Positions 60,670 to 63,533 of a stretch of 64,000 bases of DNA are shown here, one piece after another (within the stretch, counting starts at the first letter, position 1; each line of letters opens with the position of its first letter). The position numbers and the translations under genes are program-made. A model generated the notes under the pieces. That model was not told the DNA's origin, ran no database searches, and was given only the letters and a program-made list of their open reading frames with translations. The stretch comes from Clostridia bacterium (lineage in GTDB: Bacteria; Bacillota; Peptococcia; Peptococcales; BICA1-8): positions 465 through 64,464 of the forward strand of contig JAAXZE010000007.1 of the NCBI GenBank assembly GCA_012720075.1, read 5' to 3'.

Positions 60670-61131
60670 ATGGAGAATGTCAAAGTTGTCACAGAAAACC
60701 GAAAAGCTAGGCATGATTATCATATCCTTGAAACCTTTGAAGCCGGGATGGAACTAAAAGGTACGGAGGTTAAATCTCTCCGCTCCGGTAAAGCCAACTT
60801 AAAGGATAGTTATGCCCAGGTGGAAAATGGAGAAATTTTTATCTTTAACATGCACATTAGCCCCTATGAACAGGGAAACCGCTTTAATGTTGACCCATTA
60901 AGGCCCCGCAAGCTCTTAATGCATAAGAAGGAGATTTTGCGCCTCTGGGGTAAAACCAGGGAAAAAGGGCTTACTTTGATTCCGTTAAAGGTGTATTTTG
61001 TCCGGGGCAAAGCCAAAGTTGAGTAGGCACTGGCCCAGGGTAAGAAACTTTATGACAAACGGGAGGCTGCCGCAGAAAAATCAGCCAAACGGGACATCGA
61101 AAAAGCCATGAAAGAAAAAATGCGTTTTTAA
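60670..61131 (+). CDS. smpB: SsrA-binding protein SmpB, interrupted by an in-frame TAG (61024-61026)
   Basis: [29 protein letters not shown] core. After [11 protein letters not shown] the same frame continues [37 protein letters not shown], which is the conserved SmpB C-terminal tail. An alternative start is GTG 60658. Confidence 0.85.
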
Positions 61132-61195: not shown

Positions 61196-61550
61196 GGGGG
61201 TGTAATGGTTTCGACGGGGGAATTCGGTGGCTTGAGAAGCGAGTCGAGGTCGCACTGGCTCGTTAAACGTTGCACAAAAAATAAACGCTAAAAACAATAA
61301 CTTAGCTTTAGCTGCTTAATTGCAGTCTAACCTCCTACTTGCCTTTGCCTGTGGGGCGAGCAAGGGGGTCACATTAGCAGGCTACTCTTAAGTAACCGCC
61401 TTGTAGCTTAAGGGGAAACTTACAGGGCTGGCCGATGGAAATCCTGTTTGTGGGAGTTCCTGAGGCGAGATGCCAAAACACAAACTACGCTCGTAGATGC
61501 TCAGGTGGTCGATCTTCCGGACAGGGGTTCGACTCCCCTCACCTCCACCA
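61196..61550 (+). ncRNA. ssrA: tmRNA (SsrA), predicted tag reading frame GCT AAA AAC AAT AAC TTA GCT TTA GCT GCT TAA (AKNNNLALAA)
   Basis: The 5' GGGGGTG pairs with the 3' CACCTCCACCA acceptor stem, including G3:U. T-arm GGGGTTCGACTCCCC. The tag ORF ends ..LALAA-TAA. Located directly after smpB. Confidence 0.93.
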
Positions 61551-63022
61551 GCAAAGGTCACAATCGTGTCTATGTCGATTGTGTTTTCATAGACGATTAC
61601 TTTTTTAACATAAGCTTGGATGATGCGTTTTTGCTCTTCCGGGCTTTTATTTTTTATATCAGCGTCTTTTTGAAGATACTTCCGTATCATATCTTCTGTA
61701 GGTGCATGCATTTGAGCCTGTAGTTTTGCTTCCTCAAGTTTTATTGTGAGATTGGCCTTTTTAGTTTCCAACTCGTCCATTTTCTCTTTCATGGACTGAT
61801 GGAACATCCCAGCAGCTATAGCGTTCACAATATTGTTGATCTCCGTTTGCACTCCGGCCAATTGATCGGTAAACAACTTTATATCCCGATTAATCTCCTT
61901 GCTTTGAGAGGCGGCATATTCAGATATTTTCACCACCAGTCTTTCTATAGCTTCCGGGGAAAAAACATTTTCTTCAAGGTGTTTAATAACAATATTTTCC
62001 ACATAGTTTTTGTTTATCGCTTTCATATCGCAAGCCTTAGTTCTTTTCCTAGTGGAGCACTCATAACTCACATACAGGTCCTTATTTCTGCCAGCGAACT
62101 TCCTTGTCCCTGTCATGACACCACCGCATTTACCGCAGAAAATTAATCCAGATAAAAGATATATTTCTTTTGCTGAATTTGCACCCTTCTTATTCTTTTC
62201 CATACGTTTTTGCACCGCCTCCCATATTTCATCTGATATTATTCTGGGTATACCGCCCTCAATTCTGATGATTTCATCCTCGTTTTTGCTCTTGTGGTGA
62301 TTGCGCTTACCGTTAATCTTGCTGGCTGAACGATTAAATATATAAACCCCCCGGTATTTTTCGTTCTTAAGTATGTCGTGAATGCTATTTTTACCGAATG
62401 GTCTGCCGGTTTGGGTTTTATATCCTTGGCTATTTAGGACATGAATTATTTCACTGTAACCTTTTCCAGCAGCATACATTTCAAATATAGTCCGTACAAT
62501 ACGAGCTTCATGCTCATTGATTATGTACGTTTTGTCATTGGCAACATCGTATCCCAGCGGTGGCCTTCCACCAGTATGTTTGCATTGTAGGGCTGTTTCC
62601 TTCATGCCTTTCATGACTTCCCGCGCAAGGTTGCGGCTGTAATATTCGGCCATACCTTCCAAGACAGATTCCAGAATGATGCTTTCTGGACTGTCATCAA
62701 GGTGTTCAAGAACCGATATGAGACGCACGCTATTCTTTTTGAGCTGCCTTTTGTAGAAGGCTGAATCATATCTATCCCGAGAAAACCGATCTAGTTTATG
62801 CACAATCACAACGTCAAACAGGCCCAATGCGCTGTCTCGTATCATTTGAAGAAAACCAGGCCTGTCATCCGTTGTGGCTGATTTGGCTTCATCGGTATAT
62901 ATTTTTACTATTTGCATATTATTTCGATTACAATACTCTTTTATAGCCCGAAGCTGGGCTTCAATACTTTCCTCTCGCTGATTGTCACTAGAATATCTTG
63001 CGTATGCTGCAGCTTTAAACAT
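61388..63022 (-). CDS. Large serine recombinase; its last ~55 codons are antisense to the 3' part of ssrA
   Basis: Catalytic region AAAYARYSSDNQ, resolvase domain, recombinase domain, zinc ribbon CGKCGG..YECSTRKRTKAC and a coiled-coil. ATG 63022 follows GGGAGGGG. The ORF has no stop until 61388, 163 nt into the tmRNA gene. Confidence 0.85.
   Translation of the reverse strand: MFKAAAYARYSSDNQREESIEAQLRAIKEYCNRNNMQIVKIYTDEAKSATTDDRPGFLQMIRDSALGLFDVVIVHKLDRFSRDRYDSAFYKRQLKKNSVRLISVLEHLDDSPESIILESVLEGMAEYYSRNLAREVMKGMKETALQCKHTGGRPPLGYDVANDKTYIINEHEARIVRTIFEMYAAGKGYSEIIHVLNSQGYKTQTGRPFGKNSIHDILKNEKYRGVYIFNRSASKINGKRNHHKSKNEDEIIRIEGGIPRIISDEIWEAVQKRMEKNKKGANSAKEIYLLSGLIFCGKCGGVMTGTRKFAGRNKDLYVSYECSTRKRTKACDMKAINKNYVENIVIKHLEENVFSPEAIERLVVKISEYAASQSKEINRDIKLFTDQLAGVQTEINNIVNAIAAGMFHQSMKEKMDELETKKANLTIKLEEAKLQAQMHAPTEDMIRKYLQKDADIKNKSPEEQKRIIQAYVKKVIVYENTIDIDTIVTFAGGGEGSRTPVRKIDHLSIYERSLCFGISPQELPQTGFPSASPVSFPLSYKAVT
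61559..61588 (+). terminator. Probable ssrA terminator hairpin (also a candidate recombination-site dyad)
   Basis: CACAATCG-TGTCTATGT-CGATTGTG followed by TTTTC, 8 nt after the CCA end. It lies inside the antisense recombinase ORF. Confidence 0.6.
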
Positions 63023-63065: not shown

Positions 63066-63533
63066 TTAAAAAAAATTATCAATGTTTTCTATAATTCCTA
63101 ATGGATCAAAACAAATCCAGTATTCTCCCACACGGCAGTAGATGCCGTATTTTTCTTTGTAATATTTCACAGCATCACATAGAAACCTTTCTGTTACACC
63201 TAGGTACTCTGCTAGTTCGTGTTTAGTTCTGATGCCGGCTTTGTATGCTTCCACTAGCTTGTCCAAAGGAACAAGTTTCTGGTAGGCCAAGGTTCTTGCT
63301 CTACGCTCCTGCTTACGATTCTCTATTTTTGATTGGTCTAGGATATTGCCAGCAGTAGTGTAATAATGGCCGAGTTCTTCGGCGAGAACACAGCATTTCT
63401 CTGCAGTGGTCTCTAAGTTTTTGTTTAGACCAATCACCTTATCATAATACAAACCCTTTATCTTTCCTTTCAATGGAAGGTAAACAACTTCTATGCATTC
63501 CTTTTCTGCTTCAATGAGTAAGGTTTCATGCAT
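63066..63533 (-). CDS. ImmA/IrrE-like (DUF955) protein with variant EELGH motif and a C-terminal HTH-like segment
   Basis: CCVLAEELGHYYT sits where the family normally has HExxH. TKHELAEYLGVTERFL resembles an HTH. Family assignment is from memory of similar clostridial mobile-element proteins. Confidence 0.5.
   Translation of the reverse strand: MHETLLIEAEKECIEVVYLPLKGKIKGLYYDKVIGLNKNLETTAEKCCVLAEELGHYYTTAGNILDQSKIENRKQERRARTLAYQKLVPLDKLVEAYKAGIRTKHELAEYLGVTERFLCDAVKYYKEKYGIYCRVGEYWICFDPLGIIENIDNFF

Follow-up and report, generated by a model that had tools for sequence, protein, structure and literature searches.

Near the right-hand end of a 64,000-nt stretch of a Clostridia bacterium genome (contig JAAXZE010000007.1, assembly GCA_012720075.1; hereafter the window), the gene for a large serine recombinase, here termed int, runs antisense into the 3′ end of ssrA, the gene for transfer-messenger RNA (tmRNA). 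Comparison with related sequences indicates with high confidence that this overlap is a left attachment junction (attL), that the exchange took place inside positions 61539-61550, and that integration swapped the C-terminus of the integrase. These 12 nt would form the attL core of an element, a prophage or something like one, that reaches past the window on the right and was integrated at the 3′ end of ssrA by its own recombinase.

Attachment sites at the 3′ end of ssrA

The tmRNA gene is complete (61196-61550, plus strand; tag AKNNNLALAA); it is called by ARAGORN and matched over its full length by Rfam RF00023 (224.8 bits, model positions 1-374). On the minus strand, the recombinase frame opens at 63082 and more likely starts at the ATG at 63022, which is preceded by GGGAGGGG. 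From there it continues for 544 aa to a TAA at 61388-61390, with no stop codon of its own and with 163 nt (61388-61550) antisense to the tmRNA gene, just as an earlier note on this DNA had described. Judged by three Pfam domains, the predicted protein is a large serine recombinase: Resolvase (PF00239, 1.9e-29, residues 4-145; catalytic-serine motif YARYSSDNQ near the N-terminus), Recombinase (PF07508, 2.8e-26), and Zn_ribbon_recom (PF13408, 5.2e-15). The only recombinase at the junction is thus of the serine type rather than the tyrosine integrase that classically marks elements in tRNA and tmRNA genes (tDNAs).

Residues 1-495 (61538-63022, minus strand) are assigned to the phage by Pfam and homologue alignments and comprise the catalytic domain, the recombinase domain, a zinc ribbon and coiled coil, and a last β-hairpin (...VIVYENTIDIDTIVTFAGGGE). 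An AlphaFold model of the relative P0006 places long helices at residues 355-436, past the zinc ribbon. A PDB sequence search with the same 90%-identical protein matched the TP901-1 and TnpX catalytic domains, over the N-terminal catalytic domain only, and an exact-sequence look-up of the window integrase returned no match. Most homologues align to only ~91% of the query, so homology ends near residue 495, a boundary that the earlier note had proposed to look for. Glu495 (61538-61540) is the last phage-encoded residue, and its codon straddles the crossover placed below. The read-through tail that follows, GSRTPVRKIDHLSIYERSL...SYKAVT and then the TAA (61388-61537, minus strand), is antisense to the tmRNA 3′ domain; its host-derived residues number 49 (codons 61391-61537) rather than the ~55 estimated previously.

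Across the window and its relatives, all four attachment forms (attL, attP, attB, and attR) are recovered. AttL forms are present in the window and in 33 related genome loci in which the 3′ end of int meets or is overlapped by a convergent tmRNA gene. The junction is placed by aligning the window with the attP of L087 and the attB of L089. L087 encodes P0006, the closest phage-form relative (90% protein identity to the window integrase), and L089 is an element-free ssrA locus, a comparison that the earlier note had called for, from a relative with an 87%-identical RNase R; a native hairpin and tRNA-Cys lie after its tmRNA gene. All three share the 12-nt core TCACCTCCACCA (61539-61550), made up of the 3′ strand of the acceptor stem in tmRNA and the ACCA that follows it. 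Left of 61539, the window is identical to L089 at 59 of 69 positions and to L087 at 12 of 69; right of 61550, the counts are 22 of 90 for L089 and 86 of 90 for L087. Phage identity (~96%) reaches up to 61551, and host identity runs leftwards from 61550. Because the switch falls at the core, the exchange is placed within 61539-61550. By the same alignment, 61196-61538 of the tmRNA gene is host-derived, and its last 10-12 nt, common with attP, come from the phage. The full-length tmRNA keeps its acceptor pairing and CCA end: the element brings a copy of the displaced ssrA 3′ end, and the RNA gene stays intact.

The earlier note had suspected the crossover elsewhere, in a dyad that begins 8 nt past the CCA end (CACAATCG, 61559-61566; CGATTGTG, 61576-61583). 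The dyad does exist, and its proximal arm overlaps an outer motif, GGTCACAATC, that takes part in the inverted repeat of attP. The three-way alignment refutes it as the crossover site: all of it lies within the stretch in which the window follows the L087 attP at 86 of 90 positions and attB at 22 of 90, and host identity begins only at 61550 and runs away from it. An exchange within 61559-61583 is accordingly given hardly any probability.

Phage forms are represented by L084 and L085 (which carry P0033), L086 (P0012), and L087 (P0006). In L084, ImmA and XRE genes precede the recombinase, and convergent genes, among them actin-like ALP_N and Amidase_3, follow it, which indicates that a temperate phage genome has its ends joined there. 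By these sequence features the class of homologues with a short tail is the phage (attP) form, which bears out the proposal that the 3′ end of the recombinase gene contains attP. The L084 attP reads GATTGTGACCTTTG-C-TGGTGGAGGCGA-ACCGTACCAGA-CAAAGGTCACAATC; its 14-nt arms form a perfect inverted repeat 24 nt apart, and TGGTGGAGGCGA, at the centre, is a tmRNA 3′ end in reverse complement. Across L084, L086, L087, and others, inverted arms of 9-14 nt lie ~24 nt apart and are centred on GA or GG. These sites have the anatomy of a short attP (~50 bp, inverted half-sites, a non-palindromic central dinucleotide), with a predicted crossover.

Serine integrases, including those of phiC31, Bxb1, TP901-1, and A118, cut at a 2-nt overlap centred between symmetric half-sites. 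In nine phage-form loci scanned for symmetry (L084, L086, L087, L098, L130, L110, L113, L118, and L139), the centre coincides with core nt 11-12 counted from the CCA end, which on the int strand are GA, or GG where hosts carry …GGCGG. The equivalent dinucleotide in the window (61539-61540; TC on the plus strand, GA on the int strand) sits where the tmRNA acceptor and T stems meet, and arm symmetry makes it, by a modest preference, the expected point of crossover. Identity between attP and attB stops at this dinucleotide on the side of the tmRNA body, while the 10 nt ACCTCCACCA are kept on the other, as would follow if a crossover at TC let the phage copy of these 10 nt rebuild the tmRNA 3′ end. 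At core position 10, the base (T in the window and L087, C in L084 and L086) agrees with the pair in the host acceptor stem.

The putative half-sites flank this point. On the phage side, the P arm (61541-61566) is identical in the L087 attP; its first 10 nt (61541-61550) are the phage's copy of the tmRNA 3′ end, its outer motif is at 61556-61565, and it makes an inverted repeat with the CACAAT-containing P′ arms of attP forms. On the host side, the half-site corresponds to the tmRNA T-arm (GACAGGGGTTCGACTCCCC, 61519-61538) and is identical to L089; its extent is approximate, with a length taken from serine-integrase attB sites in general.

Two loci, L174 and L175, match the predicted attR in sequence, each with a host flank, the core, a P′ arm, and an orphan ...PYQ.K.T....YRH remnant that ends in a stop. 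L174 passes from an IS3 fragment and a host hairpin through TGGTGGAGGCGA into ACCGTACCAG…; its orphan frame reads GGGEPYQSKITTNISYYRHMI and a stop, no integrase lies upstream, and Dam methylase, Amidase_2, and Baseplate_J genes (Pfam; phage lysis and baseplate) lie beyond the junction. L175 consists of a P′ arm, TCACCTCCACCA, and a canonical host terminator, CCGCCGGAATCCCAATCCGGCGGTTTTT. Viral contigs scanned for an exact match to core plus P′ arm gave two matches, and a metagenome scan gave one (L175). A tblastx comparison of L174 with the attP locus L084 found no cargo in common; L174 is called a prophage end on its Pfam content. In 38 related loci, the 10 kb upstream of int contain no second copy of the core, so these elements are longer than the flanks.

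The element occupies 2.4 kb of the window and runs on past 64000. Its next gene encodes an ImmA/IrrE-type M78 peptidase (63066-63533, minus strand; PF06114, 6.7e-14), and the gene order int-ImmA-XRE recurs in L084 and L086. On the host side, smpB (60670-61131, plus strand), which encodes the partner protein of tmRNA, carries an in-frame TAG at 61024-61026; the 99.7%-identical contig L088, from another sample, has TTG (Leu). The TAG would cost the last 34 of the 153 SmpB residues and may be a genuine nonsense mutation, in which case trans-translation would be impaired, or else an error of assembly.

Integrase tails and candidate ssrA terminators

Homologues of the window recombinase diverge only past a shared ...GGGE. 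Among the 120 best cluster representatives, 45 continue into antisense tmRNA or tRNA (G[SN]RTPVRK..., or VEARGVEPLS in a second frame), 36 have a short conserved tail (PYQFKSTINIxxYRH..), 16 stop at the junction through an early stop or contig end, and the other 23 are mixed. The anticipated swap of the C-terminus is visible in these classes: phage-form relatives finish ...GGGE-PYQFKSTININQYRHKILKK and a stop, and integrated forms read ...GGGE-GSRTPVRK.... Read-through tails range from 2 to >120 residues and are unconserved, so their length is accidental while the junction itself is not. A run of 49 codons without a stop has a chance of (61/64)^49, or ~0.1, and is not improbable. A sequence-specific role for the 49-residue host-encoded tail was rejected.

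The viral tail that integration removes is ~20 aa long and carries the motif K-x-T-I-x-I-x-x-Y-R-H. Across subfamilies of unlike frame, orientation, and spacing, the motif persists in the form [KQ]-x-T-I-x-[IL]-x-x-Y-R-[HR]. Synonymous changes are seen in its codons for Tyr (TAT/TAC), His (CAT/CAC), and Arg (CGT/CGG/CGC/CGA/AGA/AGG), and this argues that the peptide is under selection beyond the constraint on P′ arm DNA. In the AlphaFold model of P0006, built from 54 sequences, residues 498-503 would form a third β-strand that comes after those at 471-476 and 480-485. The ends of viral-form tails vary (…KILKK, …RTTA, …HNK), and they share no conserved tag.

The arrangement recurs across a broad range of hosts. 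In a genome survey of 80 related loci on one-genome-per-species contigs, ARAGORN called 35 tmRNA genes; a convergent tmRNA 3′ end abuts or overlaps the recombinase 3′ end in 33 of the 80, and tRNA-Ala(GGC) or tRNA-Gly(CCC) takes the tmRNA's position in four further loci. Hosts include Clostridia, Paenibacillus, Ruminococcus, Acetobacterium, and Vallitalea. IMG/VR relatives extend the targets to tRNA-Glu, tRNA-Leu, and tRNA-Arg. The relatives that read into tRNA genes are L005, L006, L024, and L026 among the genome loci and L123, L141, L146, L158, and L171 in IMG/VR. The CUCCACCA acceptor end common to tRNA-Ala and tmRNA suggests that the target could be switched easily.

Public phage records show the same read-through. 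The GenBank record of Moorella phage MCACPph1 has a 48%-identical integrase that also runs into antisense tmRNA. Records labelled as a complete phage genome or provirus (OR602863.1, here L081, and the IMG/VR proviruses L099-L106) are cut inside the tmRNA gene and annotate the read-through integrase as a native protein; database integrases of this family therefore often carry host-derived tails.

The swap extends to subfamilies in which the core is read in another frame or is inverted. In a frame-variant subfamily, …LLVEA is followed by RGVEPLS in integrated forms and by NRDPSS…ISI..GYRHR and a stop in phage forms. An inverted-centre subfamily (L094, L095, L107; P0017, P0083, P0084, P0085) has the central attP region reversed relative to int, so that int comes to lie at the junction distant from the tmRNA gene. 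The integrase of this subfamily carries the sense reading of the tmRNA 3′ end as …SPPP (TCGCCTCCACCA) and then, when integrated, runs on into the host's native ssrA terminator. A low-complexity subfamily (L013, L108, L114, L115, L125, L127; P0067, P0089, P0093, P0112, P0116, P0120) carries a 50-70-residue insert (…KKNKKTAS…) ahead of the core and reads the core in a different frame (LLVEA…). Its phage forms still finish …ISI..GYRH, and its attP arms were not resolved by the symmetry scan. At three further loci (L090-L092; 82%-identical RNase R, Clostridiaceae bacterium BRH_c20a), the interval from smpB to tRNA-Pro/tRNA-Cys has no tmRNA by ARAGORN, and just downstream lie a LAGLIDADG-type open reading frame and a Y1 transposase; ssrA may be divergent, interrupted, or elsewhere in these genomes.

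The phage probably supplies a replacement ssrA terminator within int codons, to judge from the enrichment of hairpins across relatives. A hairpin that closes beside a T-run lies within 80 nt after the CCA in 21 of 38 attL loci, versus 1 of 38 in the next 80 nt as a control, and strong canonical terminators stand at attL in Ruminococcus, Paenibacillus, and other lineages. Two candidates are present in the window. Candidate A, CACAATCG-N9-CGATTGTG followed by TTTT (61559-61587, plus strand), is the dyad that the earlier note had taken for the likely ssrA terminator; it is phage DNA that encodes TIDIDTIV in int, and its dyad is also the best terminator-like feature in L001 and L004. Candidate B (61562-61606, plus strand; RNAfold -8.8 kcal/mol) pairs 61562-61574 with 61588-61598 and continues into a T6 run (61601-61606) formed by the Lys-Lys codons of …YVKKVIVYEN…. 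Equivalents of its hairpin and T-run occur in L002, L005, L006, L008, and L016. The two candidates are mutually exclusive in the window. The phage form (L084/L087) has the motif CACAATC/GATTGTG in triplicate, as the two attP arms and as one copy 9 nt upstream, in the codons for TIDIDT. This third copy makes up the dyad at 61559-61583 and might be an extra integrase-binding site or a terminator arm only.

Proposed mechanism and alternatives

In the circular genome, as comparison shows, attP lies within the last ~25 int codons, with arms …ATTGTGACC… and …CCACAAT… around a core that copies the last 12 nt of tmRNA. Exchange, most likely at the TC in the centre of the arms, would keep the host tmRNA body and add the last 10 nt from the phage, along with the phage-supplied terminator hairpin on the strand opposite the int codons. 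The native last ~20 int codons and their stop would be left behind at attR. Int now reads 49 arbitrary antisense-tmRNA codons to a fortuitous stop, and the 3′ end of the prophage-form int mRNA would be complementary to the abundant tmRNA. The attR of this element is predicted to read, on the plus strand, …ATTAATTGTGGATTTAAACTGATACGGT-TCACCTCCACCA and then host sequence like AAATATAAACACTT… with tRNA-Cys as in L089. A minus-strand orphan frame, …PYQFK.TI.I..YRH and a stop, is expected there. Excision should yield an attP of …CTGATACGGTTCACCTCCACCAGCAAAGGTCACAATCG… and an attB of …GACTCCCCTCACCTCCACCAAAAT….

The function of the swap is a matter for tentative hypotheses. Full-length integrase might be made from the circular genome only, with the swap lowering or altering activity in the lysogen yet permitting excision. 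A more specific and at least equally doubtful version makes the tail swap a built-in sensor of the integration state. The YRH tail, which integrative recombination or normal stability would require, would then have its codons on the circular genome alone. The prophage integrase would be silenced, truncated, or even tmRNA-tagged, and lysogeny would be locked until induction, while the other strand of the same DNA would also encode the replacement ssrA terminator.

Several points weigh against parts of this account. Comparison alone bounds the crossover to 61539-61550; the choice of dinucleotide draws on symmetry and on how serine integrases in general behave. Some 45% of attL loci have no recognisable terminator in the first 80 nt. 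The viral-tail strand is modelled at a pLDDT of only ~45-65 and was not used as evidence of a structural role. The lack of conservation among integrated tails is as compatible with a neutral by-product as with a regulatory switch, and a viral tail indispensable to all activity would leave the prophage unable to excise. No attR-like site lies in the window, which is expected because the element continues to a far end past 64000.

A neutral by-product is a serious contender, if short of an even chance: attP would overlap the 3′ end of int through genome compaction, and the swap would be without consequence, with both enzyme forms equal. This fits the scatter of integrated tails from 2 to >120 residues without conservation, the loss of homology to other recombinases near residue 495, and the low AlphaFold confidence for the viral tail; for the DsiB recombinase of Dehalococcoides islands, the ssrA-encoded part was likewise held to be non-functional (McMurdie et al., 2011; PMC3146451). 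It fits less well with a ...TI.I..YRH viral tail that persists across subfamilies of differing frame, core orientation, and spacing and whose codons change synonymously, including between CGN and AGR, which points to selection on the removed peptide. That conservation might instead reflect a constraint on DNA only, from the P′ half-site or a nearby signal, with no functional peptide. The codons for K-[VS]-T-I do coincide with the P′ outer motif (GGTCACAAT / TCCACAAT) and co-vary with the P arm (TIVTF with KV, TIVD[LM] with KS). YRH, however, lies ~12-20 nt outside the outer motif, outlasts synonymous codon turnover, and is ~11 codons farther from the core in the frame-2 subfamily, and a constraint on DNA only is considered rather unlikely.

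Less probable again is a decayed remnant, which would make the junk-tailed integrase a mere fossil, with no regulation involved. Just 2.4 kb of the element is visible, and the nonsense codon in the neighbouring smpB suggests that the assembly or strain may carry defects. Against decay stand an intact int frame with its three domains and YARYSSDNQ motif, 90% integrase identity to a phage-form relative, and an attL flank identical at 86 of 90 positions to the attP of that relative.

Related systems and the place of this phage family

Attachment sites inside coding sequences have precedents. SSV-type archaeal integrases, which are of the tyrosine type, carry attP inside int, and integration splits int into two large fragments. 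The window system shares the position of attP but differs in its short tail swap and serine enzyme. In mycobacteriophage integration-dependent immunity, reportedly described by Broussard et al. in 2013, attP is said to lie in the repressor gene, the integrase to be of the tyrosine type, and the viral C-terminus to be a degradation tag. The likeness that the earlier note drew to these phages is apt as a concept, with attP in a coding sequence and viral and prophage proteins that differ at their C-termini. It does not reach further, as the split gene here is the serine integrase itself rather than a repressor, and no conserved end resembles a degradation tag.

The Clostridium tetani phages phiCT453B, phiCT19406B, and phiCTC2B (GenBank KM983328 and others) encode a 41%-identical serine recombinase whose coding sequence is likewise annotated across the attL/attR join of the circular record. 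Their core likewise resembles a tRNA 3′ end (…GGCACCA) but, unlike in the window, lies in sense to int, as in the inverted-core subfamily. An accompanying description was not found in the searchable literature. Tyrosine-integrase islands and prophages (Williams, 2002; Islander, PMC4383910) resemble the window element in their insertion at tDNA 3′ ends, a replacement 3′ copy that keeps the target gene whole, and a short direct repeat at the distal end. They differ from it in that the window enzyme is of the serine type, its repeat is only 12 nt, and identity lies on one side of the crossover only. The Islander paper of 2015 regarded serine integrases as not known to target tDNAs (PMC4383910).

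A serine recombinase at ssrA, which the earlier note had considered unusual, has a precedent in DsiB, and the window's own clade is commonly found at tmRNA or tRNA genes. In Dehalococcoides ssrA islands, the large serine recombinase gene dsiB adjoins ssrA at attL (McMurdie et al., 2011; PMC3146451). Its 3′ end always overlaps attL, and its stop codon is found only inside ssrA or the neighbouring island, which led to the proposal that the gene is perhaps fully functional only on the circular element (PMC3146451). The window recombinase similarly overlaps attL and reads into ssrA without a stop of its own. The two systems are set apart by description. DsiB islands have a 20-bp direct repeat and an inferred T-loop insertion (ssrA 333/334), whereas the window has a 12-nt core at the acceptor stem and CCA end. 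DsiB is accompanied by DsiA, a small serine recombinase, and by a RecF/ParB/Mom module; the window has a single recombinase and then an ImmA peptidase. Finally, DsiB islands are non-phage islands in Chloroflexi, in contrast to the Firmicutes phage context and conserved viral-form tail motif seen here. A Prochlorococcus study includes, among tycheposons at islands adjoining tRNA and tmRNA genes, a few with large serine recombinases.

Beyond DsiB, tycheposons, and general statements, no description of a Firmicute phage family with a serine integrase at tmRNA was found in the searchable literature, which is incomplete. The window system is a Firmicute phage family distinct from DsiB islands, with a different crossover site. 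As far as we can tell, the anatomy of the site, the selection on the viral tail, the embedded terminator, and the breadth of tDNA targeting by this clade are new.

The near-universal 3′ end of tmRNA, and sometimes a tRNA gene, is the target of a common and phylogenetically broad clade of Firmicutes serine integrases, at sites long held to be a preserve of tyrosine integrases. Some 60 bp serve as integrase C-terminus, predicted integrase-binding site, tmRNA 3′ end, and probably ssrA terminator. For the engineering of non-model Firmicutes, an integrase whose natural attB lies in a conserved single-copy RNA gene is an attractive tool, and the rewriting of the C-terminus by integration could show whether serine-integrase activity or directionality is coupled to the integration state.

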